64,000 nucleotides of DNA, taken from NCBI RefSeq assembly GCF_003790525.1, contig NZ_CP033635.1, one strand, 5' to 3'. A program made the translations under genes and the position numbers. This DNA comes from Escherichia coli. GTDB taxonomy: Bacteria; Pseudomonadota; Gammaproteobacteria; Enterobacterales; Enterobacteriaceae. The notes below the pieces were generated by a model. It did no database searches, had not been told where the DNA came from, and saw nothing but the letters and a program-made list of their open reading frames with translations. Positions 7,877-45,298 of this stretch are shown in pieces; within the stretch, counting starts at the first letter, position 1; each line of letters starts with the position of its first letter.

Positions 7877-7907
7877 AAAACGGGAGGTGAAGGTGCCTCC
7901 CGTTTTT
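7877..7907. terminator. Bidirectional intrinsic terminator (AAAA-CGGGAGG-loop-CCTCCCG-TTTTT) shared by envZ and the minus-strand antitoxin gene
   Basis: 7 bp GC-rich stem 7881..7887 / 7896..7902 with A-run before and T-run after; antitoxin stop codon (7906..7908) lies in the T-run. Confidence 0.75.
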
Positions 7908-8202
7908 AGATTGTTTTCAATTGATTGATAATGAAAGGATTCGCTTGCAAAAGCAGGAGCAATTTTCGGGGTGCTCCGGTAGGCTGACGGCGTTTGGTTT
8001 CCCAGCTTTTGACCAGGTCATAACTTACCCCTACGGCGACAGCAAAATCTTGCTGACGTAAACCCGTTGCTTCACGGATCGCTTTTACATCGATTTCGCT
8101 AAAAGTATGGACGTGCTCTGGTTCTGGCGTTTCTTCACCCTTTTCGATGCGTACCATTTCTTCTGCGCTGGCAAGAAGATCAGCAAATAATTCATCTTTC
8201 AT
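7906..8202 (-). CDS. HigA-like antitoxin, XRE-family helix-turn-helix DNA-binding protein (98 aa)
   Basis: ATG at 8200..8202 with GGAGG Shine-Dalgarno about 10 nt upstream; C-terminal half has an HTH_XRE signature (LRQQDFAVAVGVSYDLVKSWETKRRQPTGAPRKLL); 58 bp downstream of a RelE/ParE-type toxin gene. Confidence 0.75.
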   Translation of the reverse strand: MKDELFADLLASAEEMVRIEKGEETPEPEHVHTFSEIDVKAIREATGLRQQDFAVAVGVSYDLVKSWETKRRQPTGAPRKLLLLLQANPFIINQLKTI

Positions 8203-8260
8203 CTGTTTTCAATGCCTCCGTTGACATTTCGGCCATGGTGGAATTTGTGGAGCTTCAACA

Positions 8261-8578
8261 TTAAAGCAGCTTCTCGGACAATAGTTTCAATGCCTTTCTT
8301 TGTTCTTCTGTTAAATCATCCTGTTCATTTTTAGGATAAATCAACGCCAGATAAATTCGGCCATTGCGTGTTACGTTGTAATAAATTATCCGAGTGCCAC
8401 CCCGTTTCCCCATTCCAGAACGGTTCCAGCGAATTTTTCTAAAACTGCCTGTGCCTGCGATAATGTCACCGGCAGTGGGATCTTGAATGAGTAGTTCCTG
8501 AAAAGCCCGGAACTCATCATCAGGTAGCAATAACTGGCGGCGTTTGCTAAATCCTTGTAGTTCAATAAAGGTGAACAT
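8261..8578 (-). CDS. HigB-like toxin, RelE/ParE superfamily (Gp49-like), probable ribosome-dependent mRNA endonuclease (105 aa)
   Basis: ATG at 8576..8578 with AGGA SD; motif GTGSFRKIRWNRSGMGKRGGTRIIYY resembles the conserved core of HigB-2/Gp49-like toxins (recalled Vibrio HigB: GTGGLRKIRVASKGKGKRGGSRIIYY); toxin-upstream, antitoxin-downstream order typical of hig loci. Confidence 0.72.
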   Translation of the reverse strand: MFTFIELQGFSKRRQLLLPDDEFRAFQELLIQDPTAGDIIAGTGSFRKIRWNRSGMGKRGGTRIIYYNVTRNGRIYLALIYPKNEQDDLTEEQRKALKLLSEKLL

Positions 8579-37055: not shown

Positions 37056-38141
37056 ATGAAGACGTTTCCTCTGCAAAGCCTGACGCTTATTGAGGCGCAG
37101 CAAAAGCAGTTTGCGCTGGTGGATAGCATTTGTCGCCATTTTCCCGGCAGCGAGTTTCTTGCTGGCGGTGATTTAGGCTTAACGCCGGGGCTGAATCAAC
37201 CGCGCATTACCCAGCGAGTGGAACAGGTGCTGGCTGATGCATTTCACGCACAGGCTGCAGCGCTGGTACAGGGCGCGGGTACTGGCGCGATCCGTGCGGC
37301 GTTGGCGGCTTTGCTCAAACCGGGGCAGCGTCTTCTGGTGCATGACGCGCCTGTTTACCCGACGACTCAGGTCATTATTGAGCAGATGGGGCTGACGCTT
37401 ATTACTGCTAATTTCAATGACCTGTCGGCACTTAAGCAGGTCGTCGACGAGCAACAACCGGATGCGGCGCTGGTGCAGCATACGCGCCAGCAGCCGCAGG
37501 ACGGCTACATTCTGGCAGATGTGCTGGCAACGTTGCGCTCGGCAGGTGTTCCAGCCTTAACCGATGATAACTATGCGGTGATGAAGGTGGCGCGCATTGG
37601 CTGTGAATGCGGGGCGAATGTCTCGACATTTTCCTGCTTCAAGCTATTTGGGCCAGAGGGTGTTGGCGCGGTGGTAGGCGATGCCGATGTTATTAGCCGG
37701 ATTCGCGCCACGCTCTATTCCGGCGGCAGCCAGGTTCAGGGCGCGCAGGCGCTGGAAGTCTTGCGTGGTCTGGTGCTCGCGCCAGTGATGCACGCGGTGC
37801 AGGCGGGGGTATCTGAACGGTTGCTGGCTTTGCTTAACGGCGGCGCGGTGGCGGAAGTGAAAAGCGCCGTCATTGCCAATGCACAGTCGAAGGTATTGAT
37901 TGTGGAGTTTCATCAGCCGATTGCCGCCAGAGTGCTGGAAGAGGCGCAGAAACTCGGTGCCTTGCCTTACCCGGTTGGTGCAGAGTCGAAATATGAAATC
38001 CCGCCGCTCTTTTATCGACTTTCCGGAACGTTTCGCCAGGCGAATCCGCAGTTAGAACATTGCGCGATTCGCATTAACCCAAATCGCAGCGGTGAAGAGA
38101 CGGTATTGCGGATTTTGCGCGAGAGTATTGCCGACGTTTAA
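37056..38141 (+). CDS. yhfS: Putative PLP-dependent enzyme YhfS
   Basis: 361 aa; translation recognised. Confidence 0.88.
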   Translation: MKTFPLQSLTLIEAQQKQFALVDSICRHFPGSEFLAGGDLGLTPGLNQPRITQRVEQVLADAFHAQAAALVQGAGTGAIRAALAALLKPGQRLLVHDAPVYPTTQVIIEQMGLTLITANFNDLSALKQVVDEQQPDAALVQHTRQQPQDGYILADVLATLRSAGVPALTDDNYAVMKVARIGCECGANVSTFSCFKLFGPEGVGAVVGDADVISRIRATLYSGGSQVQGAQALEVLRGLVLAPVMHAVQAGVSERLLALLNGGAVAEVKSAVIANAQSKVLIVEFHQPIAARVLEEAQKLGALPYPVGAESKYEIPPLFYRLSGTFRQANPQLEHCAIRINPNRSGEETVLRILRESIADV

Positions 38142-38171
38142 TTCTGGGAACGATGTTTTTCGAAGAGTATG

Positions 38172-38207
38172 GAGAAAAAATACGCCCTCGGAAAATCTCG
38201 AGGGCGT
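38172..38207 (-). terminator. Intrinsic terminator downstream of yhfL (stem CGCCCTCG / CGAGGGCG, T-run on minus strand)
   Basis: 8 bp GC stem 38183..38206 with A-run 38172..38181 on plus strand (T-run on minus). Confidence 0.55.
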
Positions 38208-38247
38208 CAGGCAATTAAATCAGCATCTGCCAATTTCTGTCAGAGAC

Positions 38248-38415
38248 TTACTGTGCAGTAGGACCGCAACCGCCAATGATTTTAGAAATAGAAATAGCTG
38301 GGTGCAGCAGGTAGTCGTAAGAGCAGTTCTTATCACGGTTTTCAATATGACCAGTACATGCAGTTAACGTAGCCAGTACCGCACCTACCAGTGCAACTTT
38401 AATAAATTTGTTCAT
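38248..38415 (-). CDS. yhfL: Small lipoprotein YhfL (55 aa)
   Basis: Hand-translated minus-strand ORF: MNKFIKVALVGAVLATLTACTGHIENRDKNCSYDYLLHPAISISKIIGGCGPTAQ (lipobox LTAC). Below ORF-track size cutoff. Confidence 0.88.
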   Translation of the reverse strand: MNKFIKVALVGAVLATLTACTGHIENRDKNCSYDYLLHPAISISKIIGGCGPTAQ

Positions 38416-38665: not shown

Positions 38666-40039
38666 TTAATGGTTAGAGAACCAGTTCAATTTATCGCGCA
38701 GGCCAACAACCCGACCAATAATAATTAGCGATGGACTGTTCATTTGCTGCGCCAGTTCGCCCAGCTGCGTGAGCGTACCGTCAATCACGCGCTGCGTGAC
38801 TGCCGTTCCGTTTTCGACAATTGCCACCGGCATTTCGCCAGGCATACCGTGTTCAATCAGCTTTTGCTGAATAGTCGCGGCCTGATTCAACCCCATATAG
38901 AACACCAGCGTCTGTTTTTCTGCCGCCAGGTTTTCCCAGTCCAGTTCGCCACCGGTTTTTAAGTGTCCGGTAATTAAGCGTACGCTCTGGGCATAATCGC
39001 GATGCGTGAGCGGAATACCCGAATAGGCAGAGCAACCAGAAGCTGCGGTAATACCCGGAACCACCGAGAACGGAATGCCTGCATTGCACAGTGTTTCCAG
39101 CTCTTCGCCACCACGGCCAAAAATAAACGGATCGCCGCCTTTCAGTCGCACCACGCGTTTGCCTTTTTGCGCTTCCCGCAGCAGGATCTGGTTAATCTCT
39201 TCCTGCGGTACGCAGTGGTATCCCGCGCGTTTGCCGACGAAAACGCGATCAGCATCGCGGCGTACCAGATTCATAATATCGTCAGAAACCAGACGGTCGT
39301 AGACCACCACATCTGCCTGCTGAATTTGTTGCAGTCCTTTCAGTGTCAGCAGCCCGGCATCGCCCGGACCTGCGCCAACCAGCACCACTTCACCGCGATG
39401 GTCGAGCGGTTCGTTGATTAATTGTTCGGTCGTTTCAGTAATGGCTTTCTGATCGTTGTTTGCCAGCGACTGCGCCAGACGGTCATTAACGAACAGTTTT
39501 TCCCAGAAACGGCGACGTTCACCCATTGTGGCGAACTGTTGTTTCACTCGACCGCGTAATTGCCCGGCGTATTTCGCTACCTGGCCCAGATGCAACGGCA
39601 GCAGTGATTCAAGTTTTTCACGCAACAGGCGTGCCAGAACCGGAGAGGTGCCGCCAGAGGAGACCGCGACCATGAGCGGTGAGCGGTCAATAATTGACGG
39701 CATAATAAAGCTGGCGGCTTTCGGCGCATCGACCACGTTACAGAAGATGCGACGAGCTTCAGCGGCTTCACTGACGCGCTGGTTAAGCGCGTCATCATCT
39801 GTCGCTGCAATCGCCAGCCAGCAGGTGTCGAGAAGGCTTTCATCAAATGGCCCTTCGACGAGGGTTAACATGCCTGCATCTGCCCATGCGGTGAACTGTG
39901 GAATAAACGCTAATGCATTCACCGTTAAGCGAGCGCCTGCGTCTAACAGCAACCTTGCTTTGCGTTCCGCGACATCACCACCGCCGACAATCAGACAGTC
40001 GCGATCGCGTAATTGGCAAAATATAGGCAAATGATCCAC
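38666..40039 (-). CDS. cysG: Siroheme synthase (uroporphyrinogen-III methyltransferase / precorrin-2 dehydrogenase / ferrochelatase)
   Basis: 457 aa; translation recognised. Confidence 0.96.
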
Positions 40040-40057
40040 GTAAAAACCCCTTAGTAA

Positions 40058-40864
40058 TTAACCGGCAGCTGTTTCAGTTTGATTAAATTTGTCCGCAACC
40101 GGACGATTCGCTTTCGGCGTAGCATACCAATAACCCAATCCCATGAATACGGCACCTGATAAAGTATTACCCAGCGTCACCCACAGCAGGTTATGACCAA
40201 TACCCGCCAGCGTGTAGGCTTCGCTGTGGTTGCCAAACCAGGAGAGGGCGAACAGCGTCATGTTCGCGATGGAGTGCTCGTAGCCGGACGCGATAAATGC
40301 CAGCAGACACCACCAGATAGCGATAAATTTCGCCGCCCCTTCAGTGCGCAGCGCCATCCAGATAGCCAGGCAAACCAGCCAGTTACACAATGCACCTTTG
40401 AAGAACAGTACCATTGCCGGTGCAGTGGTTTTAGCCAGCGCGACGGAGTGAACGATGCTGGTATCTACCGGCAGCAGGCTACCGCCGCCCCAGCTATAGA
40501 GCATGGCAACAAAGACGGAACCAACCAGGTTACCCAGCCAGGTTTGCGGCAGGATTGCCCACATTTGCCCGTGGCTGATAGTGCCCGCTTTCACTCCAAA
40601 GGTGAGGAACATGGTGTGTCCGGTGAACAGTTCAGAACCAGCAATAATGACCAGCGTTAAGGCGATACCAAAGGTCGCGCCCATCACCAGAGGACGTACG
40701 GACGGGTCGAGCAAATTACCGAGCGTGAAAATCAGGATGATCCCAAGACCCACATACGCCCCCGCCATTGCGGAGCTGACCCAGAAGCCGAGCGGGTTAT
40801 TTGCCGACAGGCGTGCAATGCGCGCAGCGTTAGCCGCACACTTATTAATAGTGTCTGTAAACAT
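40058..40864 (-). CDS. nirC: Nitrite transporter NirC (FNT family)
   Basis: 268 aa; translation recognised. Confidence 0.95.
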   Translation of the reverse strand: MFTDTINKCAANAARIARLSANNPLGFWVSSAMAGAYVGLGIILIFTLGNLLDPSVRPLVMGATFGIALTLVIIAGSELFTGHTMFLTFGVKAGTISHGQMWAILPQTWLGNLVGSVFVAMLYSWGGGSLLPVDTSIVHSVALAKTTAPAMVLFFKGALCNWLVCLAIWMALRTEGAAKFIAIWWCLLAFIASGYEHSIANMTLFALSWFGNHSEAYTLAGIGHNLLWVTLGNTLSGAVFMGLGYWYATPKANRPVADKFNQTETAAG

Positions 40865-40988
40865 TTGATTATCCTTTAAAAAATAAAAACAAAAAATAAA
40901 ACAAAAAGTTTAAAAAATGTCCTGCAATATACCAAGGTTATTACAGGACCATGCAAAAAGGGGAGGCATTGTGCCTCCCGTTAAAACA

Positions 40989-41315
40989 TTAACCGCGTAG
41001 CTGCACCACGCCGTCTTTCACTCGCGCGTCGTAATGCTTGACGGAAAACTGTTCGTCTTCCATGCACAAGCCGTCGCTTAAGCGAAAACGCTGTTTTTTC
41101 AGCGGGCTGGCGACCCACAGCTCGCCCTGGTGTTCCGCAATCAGCCCGCGTGACAGCACGCTGGACTCGAAGAACGGGTCGATGTTGCTGATCGCAAACA
41201 CCTGGTCGCTGTGATACGGGCGGAAAATTGCTACCTGCTCGTCACCTAACAGCGCGCAGACGCCGGTTTCAGGCAGGATGTCATCGATTTTGCAGATGTC
41301 TTTCCACTGGCTCAT
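40989..41315 (-). CDS. nirD: NADH-nitrite reductase small subunit (Rieske-like)
   Basis: 108 aa; 4 nt overlap with nirB. Confidence 0.95.
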   Translation of the reverse strand: MSQWKDICKIDDILPETGVCALLGDEQVAIFRPYHSDQVFAISNIDPFFESSVLSRGLIAEHQGELWVASPLKKQRFRLSDGLCMEDEQFSVKHYDARVKDGVVQLRG

Positions 41316-43855
41316 GCGTTGTCCTCCACCAGAGTTACCGGGATACGTTCATACGGCGTTGCCGGACGGTGCTGTTCGCGCTCTGGCACCATCTGCACGT
41401 TCGGGTCACGCTTGTCGCTGTTGATGAAGTGTTTGAAGCGAGTCTGCGCGGACGGTGTATTGACCGTTTCAGTCCACTCACACACTACCGCTTCACGCAG
41501 GCGCGCCATCTCTTCTTCCAGATGTGCGTTCAGCCCCAGTTTGTCGTCAATGATCACCGCTTTCAGGTAATCGATGCCACCTTCGAGGTTTTCTAACCAC
41601 GGCGCGGTACGCGTCAGTTTGTCGGCAGTACGGATGTAGAACATCATGAAGCGGTCAAGATATTTAATCAGCGTTTCGCGATCGATATCCGCTGCCAGCA
41701 GATCCGCATGACGCGGTTTCATGCCGCCGTTACCGCAAACATACAGGTTCCAGCCTTTTTCGGTGGCGATGATACCCACGTCTTTACCCTGAGCTTCTGA
41801 ACATTCACGGGTACAGCCAGAGACACCGAACTTCATTTTGTGCGGCGTACGGATGCCTTTGTAGCGGTTTTCCAGTTCCACGCCGAGGCCGACGCTGTCG
41901 CCAACGCCGTAGCGGCACCAGGTGCTACCCACGCAGGTTTTCGCCATACGCAGTGCTTTCGCATAGGCATGACCGGTTTCGAAGCCGGCTTCAATCAGCT
42001 GACGCCAGATTTCCGGCAGATCGTCTTTCTGTGCGCCAAACATCGCCAGGCGCTGAGAGCCGGTGATTTTGGTGTAGAGATTAAATTCACGCGCGATACG
42101 ACCTACTGCCATCAGCCCTTCCGGGGTGATTTCACCGCCCGGAGAACGCGGGATCACCGAGTAGGTGCCGTCTTTCTGGATGTTAGCGAGGAAGTTGTCG
42201 TTTGAATCCTGCAGCGGAGTATGTTCCGGCTTCAGAATGTATTCGTTCCAGCAGGAGGCCAGCAGCGAACCGACGGTCGGTTTACAAACTTCACAACCGT
42301 AGCCTTTGCCGTGTTTCGCCAGCAGTTCTTCGAAGGTTTTAATGCCTTCAACGCGGATCAAATGGAACAGTTCCTGACGCGAATAAGCAAAGTGTTCGCA
42401 CAGGTTGTTGTTAACTTCGATGCCCTGTTTCGCCAGTTCCGCGTTCAGTACCTGAGTGACCAGCGGGATACAGCCACCGCAGCCAGTACCCGCTTTGGTT
42501 TCAGCTTTCAGCGCCGCAACGGTGTGGCAGCCTTTGTTGATAGCTGCAATCAGATCGCCTTTGGTGACGTCGAAGCAGGAGCAGATTTGCGCGCTGTCCG
42601 GCAGTTTATCAACACCGATAGACGGCTTACCGCTACCTGAGTGCGCCGGCAGAATCAGAGAATCCGGGTTTTCCGGCAGTTCGATAGCGTTCAGCACCAG
42701 TTGCAGCAGGTTGCCGTAGTCGCTGGTATCGCCCACCAGTACCGCACCGAGCAGGGTTTTGTTGTCTTCGCTGACAATCAGGCGTTTGTAGATCTCTTTG
42801 CTTTCGTCGAGGTAAACGTAGCTACGTGCGCCAGGCGTGCGACCATGCGCATCACCAATACCGCCTACGTCTACGCCCAGCAGTTTCAGCTTAGCGCTAA
42901 GGTCAGCACCTTCAAAGGCGTTTTCGCTACCAAGAATATGGTCAACGGCGACCTGCGCCATTTTGTAGCCTGGTGCTACCAGACCAAATACACGGTTGTT
43001 CCAGCTTGCGCATTCACCGATGGCGTAGATATCCGGATCGGAAGTCTGGCAGGAATCATTGATGACAATACCCCCACGCGGAGCAACGTCCAGACCACAC
43101 TGGGTTGCCAGCTTATCGCGCGGACGGATACCGGTTGAGAAGACGATAAAGTCGACTTCCAGCTCGCTACCGTCGGCAAAACGCATGGTTTTACGCGCTT
43201 CGACACCTTCCTGCACAATCTCAAGGGTGTTTTTGCTGGTGTGAACGCGCACGCCCATACTTTCGATTTTGCGACGCAGCTGCTCGCCACCCATCTGATC
43301 AAGCTGTTCCGCCATCAGCATAGGGGCAAATTCGATAACGTGGGTTTCAATACCTAAGTTTTTCAGCGCGCCAGCGGCTTCCAGACCTAACAGGCCGCCA
43401 CCAACAACGGCACCGCGTTTGCTGCGACGGGCACAGGATTCAATGGCGTTGAGGTCTTCAATGGTGCGATAGACAAAGCAGTCCTGAGTATCAGAACCTT
43501 TGATTGGCGGGATCCACGGGTAGGAACCGGTTGCCATGATCAGCTTGTCATAAAAAACGGTACGTCCGGCGCTGGAGTGAATCACCTTCTCCTGACGGTT
43601 GATGGTGATAGCGCGTTCACCGACCAGAACTTTGATGCCGTGTTTCTCGTAGAAGCCTTCGCGCACCAGCGACAGCTCTTCGGCGGTGTGGTGAGAGAAG
43701 TAAGACGAGAGGTGTACGCGGTCATAAGCGATGCGCGGTTCTTCACAGAAAACGGTAATATCAAAGTTGGCCGCATCAGATTTATCAAGAAGATCTTCGA
43801 TAAAGCGATGGCCGACCATACCGTTACCGATAATTGCGAGTCTGACTTTGCTCAT
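41312..43855 (-). CDS. nirB: NADH-nitrite reductase large subunit
   Basis: 847 aa; translation recognised. Confidence 0.97.
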   Translation of the reverse strand: MSKVRLAIIGNGMVGHRFIEDLLDKSDAANFDITVFCEEPRIAYDRVHLSSYFSHHTAEELSLVREGFYEKHGIKVLVGERAITINRQEKVIHSSAGRTVFYDKLIMATGSYPWIPPIKGSDTQDCFVYRTIEDLNAIESCARRSKRGAVVGGGLLGLEAAGALKNLGIETHVIEFAPMLMAEQLDQMGGEQLRRKIESMGVRVHTSKNTLEIVQEGVEARKTMRFADGSELEVDFIVFSTGIRPRDKLATQCGLDVAPRGGIVINDSCQTSDPDIYAIGECASWNNRVFGLVAPGYKMAQVAVDHILGSENAFEGADLSAKLKLLGVDVGGIGDAHGRTPGARSYVYLDESKEIYKRLIVSEDNKTLLGAVLVGDTSDYGNLLQLVLNAIELPENPDSLILPAHSGSGKPSIGVDKLPDSAQICSCFDVTKGDLIAAINKGCHTVAALKAETKAGTGCGGCIPLVTQVLNAELAKQGIEVNNNLCEHFAYSRQELFHLIRVEGIKTFEELLAKHGKGYGCEVCKPTVGSLLASCWNEYILKPEHTPLQDSNDNFLANIQKDGTYSVIPRSPGGEITPEGLMAVGRIAREFNLYTKITGSQRLAMFGAQKDDLPEIWRQLIEAGFETGHAYAKALRMAKTCVGSTWCRYGVGDSVGLGVELENRYKGIRTPHKMKFGVSGCTRECSEAQGKDVGIIATEKGWNLYVCGNGGMKPRHADLLAADIDRETLIKYLDRFMMFYIRTADKLTRTAPWLENLEGGIDYLKAVIIDDKLGLNAHLEEEMARLREAVVCEWTETVNTPSAQTRFKHFINSDKRDPNVQMVPEREQHRPATPYERIPVTLVEDNA

Positions 43856-43912
43856 TTTTGCCTCGATTTCTTTTCTATTACCGCCTACCTTAACGATTCA
43901 GCAACCCCGCTT

Positions 43913-43926
43913 ATTGATGTAAATCA
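43913..43926 (-). promoter_or_regulatory. FNR binding site of nirB promoter (TTGATGTAAATCAA, perfect TTGAT-N4-ATCAA)
   Basis: Perfect FNR consensus centred about 64 bp upstream of nirB ATG, consistent with the known -41.5 site of the nir promoter. Confidence 0.8.
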
Positions 43927-43939
43927 AATTCACCTTTAT

Positions 43940-43955
43940 ATACTCCTTAAGGGGT
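43940..43955 (-). promoter_or_regulatory. NarL/NarP 7-2-7 heptamer pair (TACTCCT-TA-AGGGGTA) of nirB promoter
   Basis: Inverted heptamers matching TACYYMT, centred about 28 bp upstream of FNR site centre (about -69.5). Confidence 0.65.
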
Positions 43956-44116
43956 ATATTGCTGATTTGTATAAATTTTCTTAAGTCACGGAATTGTCTG
44001 ACATTTCATGTTTGTACAAAAAACAGACAAATTGAGCGGGTTTATAGAAATAGATGTACGTAGCGCGGTAAGAGAGGAAAAGGCCGGACGACGATAGTGC
44101 CGCCCGGCATGAGCAA

Positions 44117-45298
44117 TTAATGAGAGGTCAGGGTGTTATGCTGACGGTGACGGCTGACGAAACCTAACAGGAAGCACATCACAAAGACGACAGCGTACAG
44201 ACCGTTTGCCGTCAGCAGCGCCGCCTGCGGACCGCTATGTTCAACAATCGGGCCGGTAACCACAAAGGTCAACATAGTACCGATGGTCCCGCAGGTCAGG
44301 ACAAAGTTAACCAGTTTTGGCGACGGTACTTTGGTCTGCTGTGAACCCAAAGTGATGATGGTGGTATAGATCGCGCTGGAGAAGAAGCCCAGGGCGAGAA
44401 TTGACCACGCCATATGTGCCGGTGTTCCGGTGTTAAAGACGTACATCAGAATCGCAGCCAGACCAGCCAGTACGGTCAGAATGCGTTGCAAATCAAAGAA
44501 GCGAAGAATAAAGCTGAACGCCCACATGCCGACCATGTATGACATCCAGAAGTTACTCACCAGCGTGCCCGCGTCGTTCAGGCTCATGCCCAGGCCTTTG
44601 GCATACTCAGGCACCCAGGAGATAAAACCTAACTGACCGAGGATGTAGCACAGTGCCGCAATGGAGAGAAACAGCACGCCGATCCCCCATTTTTCTTTCG
44701 CTACCGGAGCGTCCGTTTTTGGCGCATGTTTACCCAGCGCCGGGAACTCACAGCCGAAGGTCAGAATAAAGATAGCGACGTACACCAGCCCGATGCAGGC
44801 ATAAACCCAGTACCACTCAATGCTGCGCGCCAGCAGAAACGCGGCGATCATTGGGAAAATCATCCCGGCCATACTGAAGAAGGAGTCGGTAAATAACAGG
44901 CGTGAACCGCGCTGACGTCCTTCATACATTTGTGTTACCAGGAATGTACCAATCGACATGGTGATGCCGCTGACCACCCCGAGAATGAACATCGCCGCCG
45001 AGAACAGTGCCAGGCTGTGGCTGAACATCAAACCGGCAACCGCCAGCACCATCAGGAGAAAGCCAAAACGTAACTGCGTTTTCAACGGGACGATTTCCAT
45101 CAGCCAGGCGTTGAGGAAGATAGAGATTAAAATGCCGGCGTTGAGGAAGGTGAAGGTATTACTCATACTGGAAACAGGCAGATTGAAATAATCGGCGATA
45201 TTTCCCATCACCATCCCGGTGACAATAACCAACGCACCGGTCAGTGCGTAGGAGAGAAAGCTAATCCATGTGAGCTTGATGCGATTGCTGTTAGTCAT
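44117..45298 (-). CDS. tsgA: MFS transporter TsgA
   Basis: 393 aa; translation recognised. Confidence 0.93.

Follow-up and report, generated by a model that had tools for sequence, protein, structure and literature searches.

The window, by which we mean the whole stretch of Escherichia coli DNA that was analysed (64,000 nucleotides), carries the nirB gene, and the question raised by this locus is whether the DNA upstream of nirB is an intact nir promoter that works like the one dissected in E. coli K-12. A sequence-only reading had proposed that a perfect FNR site and a NarL/NarP 7-2-7 site are present there at the expected spacing. It had added that the regulatory region is conserved, and that the finding is not novel but anchors the annotation.

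The nirB locus and its two regulator sites

The gene downstream of the proposed sites is indeed nirB. Its product matches the NirB profiles NCBIfam NF011565 with 1873 bits (cutoff 883) and TIGR02374 with 1386 bits, and the gene lies on the minus strand. The neighboring genes and features are the following.

38666-41315, minus strand: rest of the operon, with nirD at 40989-41315, nirC at 40058-40864 and cysG at 38666-40039
41312-43855, minus strand: nirB, encoding the NADH-nitrite reductase large subunit of 847 aa (open reading frame, profile match, and annotation in SMS-3-5 and K-12)
44083-44108, minus strand: terminator-like hairpin with a T-rich tail, CTTTTCCTCT, with a 10-pair stem (8 G-C pairs), just after the tsgA stop
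44117-45298, minus strand: tsgA, upstream of nirB (NF002982, 643 bits)

The coordinates of nirD, nirC and cysG were converted from the annotation of E. coli SMS-3-5 by way of an alignment of the window to that record (NC_010498.1, reverse complement). This alignment contains one mismatch in 64,000 bases, and by its sequence the strain is indistinguishable from SMS-3-5 over the window. The gene order in SMS-3-5 is ppiA / tsgA-nirB-nirD-nirC-cysG-yhfL, and the order tsgA-nirB-nirD-nirC-cysG matches K-12. The hairpin after tsgA would stop tsgA transcription from running on into the nir promoter.

Three further observations concern the wider window. The sole mismatch to SMS-3-5 falls within positions 1-31994. 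In the region of 38142-38247, yhfL (38248-38415, minus strand) directly adjoins yhfS (37056-38141, plus strand), whereas K-12 has frlA after yhfL; the K-12 alignment ends at window position 38173. Of 5426 E. coli genomes, 2097 cover a query across the yhfL-yhfS junction contiguously to at least 80%, and the frl (fructoselysine) region appears to be a presence/absence polymorphism here. Finally, the pckA-envZ interval contains, at 7906-8578 on the minus strand, a RelE/ParE-family toxin gene (8261-8578) and a NadS-family gene (7906-8202), both according to the SMS-3-5 annotation. We call this segment a putative accessory toxin-antitoxin-like module because just 1330 of the 5426 complete E. coli genomes contain it, and in each of these it is chromosomal.

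Within the interval between tsgA and nirB, we distinguish the following elements, listed from the promoter-distal end.

43963-43968, minus strand: AAATCA block, -89 to -84, at least 95% conserved in 79 promoters and outside the search pattern used below
43941-43956, minus strand: NarL/NarP 7-2-7 site, sense strand TACCCCTTAAGGAGTA, i.e., TACCCCT-TA-AGGAGTA, with its centre at 43948.5 (-69.5)
43914-43927, minus strand: FNR site, sense strand TTGATTTACATCAA, a perfect TTGAT-N4-ATCAA with its centre at 43920.5 (-41.5)
43889-43902, minus strand: candidate Cra (FruR) operator GCTGAATCGTTAAG, -23 to -10, centre -16.5, overlapping the -10 region
43887-43892, minus strand: -10 hexamer TAAGGT, -13 to -8, matching TATAAT at 3 of 6 positions
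43879, minus strand: predicted start of transcription (+1, base A), 24 nt before the ATG, from arithmetic on the -41.5/-69.5 centres and the identity with K-12 from -71 to +27
43856-43878, minus strand: 5' untranslated leader, with the Shine-Dalgarno sequence GAGG at 43861-43864

Both regulator sites that had been claimed, one for the oxygen sensor FNR and one for the nitrate/nitrite sensors NarL/NarP, are thus present, and each is unique. The FNR pattern TTGATNNNNATCAA has one match on the two strands of the 64-kb window, with 0.11 expected from dinucleotide-preserving shuffles. For the NarL/NarP 7-2-7 consensus TACYYMTNNAKRRGTA, a single match is found in the window even when one mismatch is allowed (0.10 expected), and this site fits TACYYMT-N2-AKRRGTA exactly. 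Read along the minus strand, the promoter has the order TACCCCTTAAGGAGTA-TATAAAGGTGAAT-TTGATTTACATCAA-TAAGCGGGGTTGCTGAATCGTTAAGGTAGGCGGTAATAGAAAAGAAATCGAGGCAAAAATG. The gap between the two sites is 13 bp and their centres are 28 bp apart, which is the exact distance between -41.5 and -69.5 and agrees with K-12, so the spacing is as had been expected. The FNR site lies 58 bp from the nirB ATG.

Some details of the sequence-only reading need adjustment. The sites that it placed in the range 43913-43955 are real, but both ends of this range are off by one base, the true start being 43914 and the true end 43956. On the plus strand, the sites read TTGATGTAAATCAA (43914-43927) and TACTCCTTAAGGGGTA (43941-43956) in the 64-kb window. 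The strings that had been quoted are the antisense reading of two near-palindromes, and nothing had been said of nirB being on the minus strand.

The core promoter and its identity with K-12

The K-12 nir promoter, which drives nirBDC-cysG, is at the same locus as the promoter in the window, and the two share the gene order, the FNR site, the -10 hexamer and the leader. An alignment with this characterised promoter had been suggested as a check, and the one we made with K-12 MG1655 shows 100% identity from -71 to a point past the start codon. The NarL/NarP site is in the same position in K-12, where it shares 15 of its 16 bases with the window. The sites are therefore of the K-12 type and intact, with the qualification that only the FNR site is identical, while the NarL/NarP site has one base difference, at -72. 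Likewise, the statement that the regulatory region is conserved is correct for the core promoter but not for the DNA upstream of the NarL site, which has eight further substitutions relative to K-12. In total, the 261-bp tsgA-nirB intergenic region has 9 substitutions, at -72, -123, -137, -145, -153, -178, -187, -190 and -224 (with +1 at window position 43879). The last of these (window position 44103, G where K-12 has A) is in the stem of the tsgA hairpin, where it changes an A-U pair to G-U and pairing is kept.

Because the core is identical to that of K-12, we consider the K-12 positions -41.5 and -69.5 to be transferable, and we infer that transcription starts at 43879. With this +1, the ATG of nirB is at +25. 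The -10 hexamer TAAGGT is largely conserved across about 79 species, and GAGGCAAAAATG in the leader is conserved across species. There is no usable -35 element, and the FNR site occupies its place. The combination of a weak -10 with no usable -35 argues that the promoter is activator-dependent. In a scan of 43800-44200 for the sigma-70 consensus, no promoter-like site was found. We considered whether the missing consensus should count against a promoter and rejected this argument, as the lack is expected of an activator-dependent class II promoter.

The element that overlaps the -10 region, GCTGAATCGTTAAG, is identical in K-12 and partly conserved across species. For the nir promoter, Tyson, Busby and Cole (1997) reportedly described a Cra (FruR) operator with its centre at -16.5; the candidate falls exactly there and is intact. 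A literature search on Cra/FruR together with nirB returned tangential matches only, and a search for the exact site sequences and site positions returned nothing useful.

Two other kinds of feature were considered in this region and set aside. A search of both strands of 43700-44300 against Rfam, with E-values up to 1, found no RNA family, and the idea that the leader or the intergenic region holds a riboswitch or an sRNA was accordingly dropped. Two plus-strand open reading frames over the promoter (43577-43984 and 43731-43922) are antisense to the start of nirB; they are unsupported, are unannotated in both SMS-3-5 and K-12, and were rejected as genes.

The composite motif across species and the variation at -72

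Short, degenerate consensus sequences are matched by chance at some rate, and it is important to consider that both motifs could be such matches with no regulatory role. By itself, either motif would be expected about 0.1 times in 64 kb, which leaves some room for a coincidence. What this explanation does not accommodate is that the motifs occur jointly, with the exact 13-bp gap and the appropriate distance to nirB, and that the sequence is identical with the K-12 promoter dissected by experiment. We addressed the same point with a scan for the composite TACYYMTNNAKRRGTA-N13-TTGATNNNNATCAA in about 100,000 species-representative genomes (298 Gb). The composite has 85 matches, where about 0.1 would be expected by chance (an estimate that assumes equal base frequencies), and 83 of the 85 are immediately upstream of nirB in Enterobacterales. 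The scan and the identity with K-12 effectively refute the chance explanation, which we regard as vanishingly improbable.

The distance to the gene is also nearly constant. According to tblastn, NirB starts 53-59 bp after the FNR site in 82 matches, and mostly at 57-58 bp. For one further match (L049), the flank is too short for tblastn, and it reads ATGAGCAAAGTCAGACTCGCAATTATCG / GAGGCAAAAATGAGCAAAGTCAGACTCGCAATTATCG, giving MSKVRLAII, the N-terminus of NirB. The nirB matches come from Citrobacter, Salmonella arizonae, Kluyvera, Buttiauxella, Enterobacter, Cedecea, Atlantibacter, Raoultella, Kosakonia, Franconibacter, Pantoea, Erwinia, Mixta and Pectobacterium, and the identity of their NirB proteins to that of the window goes down to 66-79%. 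The layout of NarL site, 13 bp, FNR site, 58 bp and ATG is almost diagnostic of nirB across Enterobacterales.

Within this set, there are 27 versions of the NarL 16-mer and 17 versions of the FNR 14-mer, the latter differing in the spacer, and the contact bases are fixed; the 13-bp gap has many sequence versions and a fixed length. Since the set was selected by the pattern itself, it is in part circular to cite it for conservation of the two sites. Independent evidence from the scan comes from the association with nirB, from the constant distance to the ATG and from the conserved flanking blocks. In an alignment of 79 non-identical enterobacterial nirB promoters, these blocks are AAATCA, parts of GCTGAATCGTTAAGGT near the -10, and the Shine-Dalgarno/start region.

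No Escherichia, Salmonella enterica or Klebsiella representative is among the 85 matches, although the window and K-12 fit the pattern. This absence points either to variant sites in the representatives or to a gap in the collection.

The two matches not associated with nirB are from Shewanella waksmanii and S. benthica (L022, 6222-6265, and L058, 5482-5525). In both, the composite site is about 125 bp upstream of the gene for a small secreted protein (MMRKNILSGLIATALLATGFTSSVAAHQAGD...), which we take to resemble an OmpW-type outer-membrane protein. That the motif is kept in both species suggests a real promoter of the EtrA/NarP type.

We turn to the single difference between the window and K-12 within the sites themselves. 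At -72 (window position 43951), in the promoter-distal heptamer, K-12 has A (TACCCAT-TA-AGGAGTA) and the window has C (TACCCCT-TA-AGGAGTA). This is position 6 of the TACYYMT heptamer, where M stands for A or C, so both bases fit the consensus. Of 5426 complete E. coli genomes, 5425 contain a 361-bp stretch of this promoter, in every case with at least 95% identity. For a shorter query of 80 bp, any one mismatch drops a genome below the 99% band, so this band corresponds to exact matches. By this measure, the allele of the window is found exactly in 3769 of the 5425 complete genomes and that of K-12 in 1200, with 456 genomes having other variants of the 80-bp stretch. The window thus has the form that is common in E. 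coli, and the allele of the laboratory reference, K-12, is in the minority.

Such a polymorphism might mean that the nir promoter of the window is tuned unlike that of K-12, i.e., that -72C and the eight upstream substitutions alter the size or the threshold of nitrate/nitrite induction. With the C, the 7-2-7 site gains in symmetry (6 of 7 positions mirrored, vs. 5 of 7 in K-12) and has the heptamer TACCCCT, as does the engineered narG -89/-89 site, which is of high affinity (PMC4549865). Moreover, the eight upstream substitutions are in the region of the described Fis and IHF sites, and both alleles have appreciable frequencies in E. coli. On the other hand, position 6 is degenerate in the consensus, and among the selected enterobacterial nirB promoters, C occurs in 43 (including the window) and A in 38 (including K-12). 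Such nearly equal use of the two bases across nirB promoters is a neutral-like pattern, and it argues that the polymorphism in E. coli is neutral as well. Our assessment is that the difference at -72 is probably neutral and that differential tuning is unlikely. If -72C does change the occupancy by NarL or NarP, the degree to which nitrite/nitrate induces the cytoplasmic nitrite reductase would not be the same in most natural E. coli as the textbook values for K-12 indicate, a consequence that we consider equally doubtful. For users of the K-12 nir promoter as a model or an expression tool, the polymorphism is a minor point.

Proposed working of the promoter and its relation to known promoters

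Given these results, we are nearly certain that 43879-43968 (minus strand) is the promoter of nirBDC-cysG, most likely working as in K-12. None of the observations speaks against this reading. The K-12 assignments can be transferred to the window because the core positions are identical, and it is from the K-12 literature that we infer protein binding and the anti-repression mechanism in the strain of the window. In that literature, the FNR site of nirBDC-cysG is at -41.5, with support from ChIP and expression data (PMC3688515). NarL binds the nir promoter at -69.5 and displaces IHF at -88 (PMC10853779), and relief of Fis repression has also been described (PMC10853779; PMC3688515).

The promoter in the window would then operate as follows. 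Under anaerobiosis, an FNR dimer would bind the perfect TTGAT-N4-ATCAA at -41.5. As this site overlaps the missing -35 element, FNR would recruit RNA polymerase directly, in the class II manner, to the weak -10 hexamer TAAGGT. IHF and Fis bound upstream would hold this FNR-dependent activation down. When nitrate or nitrite is present, phosphorylated NarL or NarP would bind the 7-2-7 site at -69.5, and its main effect would be to displace IHF near -88 and relieve the repression by IHF and Fis, rather than to contact the polymerase.

The identity of the protein at -41.5 deserves separate consideration, as another regulator of the CRP/FNR family, e.g., CRP, might be the main user of TTGAT-N4-ATCAA in place of FNR. 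CRP and FNR recognise related half-sites, and nir expression reportedly responds to catabolites, an effect attributed to Cra and Fis and not to CRP. However, the half-sites in the window are of the FNR type, TTGAT, and do not have the G of the CRP-type GTGA. Furthermore, FNR ChIP and expression data put nirBDC-cysG in the FNR regulon with its site at -41.5 (PMC3688515). Predominant use by CRP or a relative is thus highly improbable, and FNR is the regulator that we assign to this site.

The upstream part of the mechanism involves the nucleoid proteins. Apart from the two selected sites, AAATCA is the element with the strongest conservation, and its position is consistent with its being the core of the IHF I site at -88, which is the IHF site that clashes with NarL at the nir promoter (PMC10853779). 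Also fairly well conserved are ACTTA at -107 to -103 and AAAAT near -100 to -96. Together with AAATCA, these are candidate contact blocks for IHF or Fis. For the nir promoter, Fis sites have been reported near -142, -97 and +23, as has another IHF site near -115. The substitutions at -137 and -145 relative to K-12 flank -142, and for this reason the nucleoid-protein part of the mechanism could differ from K-12 in degree.

The promoter in the window is one that is already known, and it is intact and ordinary. We agree that it is not novel and that its value is that of an annotation anchor only: with it, nirB and the tsgA-nirBDC-cysG block are identified, and their strand and start are settled. 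It also marks the window as E. coli chromosome that is SMS-3-5-like.

Among other known promoters of E. coli, the nrf promoter (pnrf) has a similar architecture. Its 7-2-7 site is at -74.5, as compared with -69.5 in nir. Like nir, pnrf has FNR at -41.5, NarL/NarP upstream, and suppression by IHF and Fis (PMC5434802). The two differ in that pnrf is at another locus and drives the operon for the periplasmic cytochrome c nitrite reductase; the window carries nirB and not nrfA. The yeaR and ogt promoters, which are NarL-dependent class II promoters, contain the same 7-2-7 element as nir (PMC10853779). At these promoters, however, FNR has no part, and NarL makes direct contact with RNA polymerase from a position at -43.5 or -44.5, whereas the NarL site of nir is at -69.5 and serves for anti-repression on an FNR-dependent promoter (PMC10853779).
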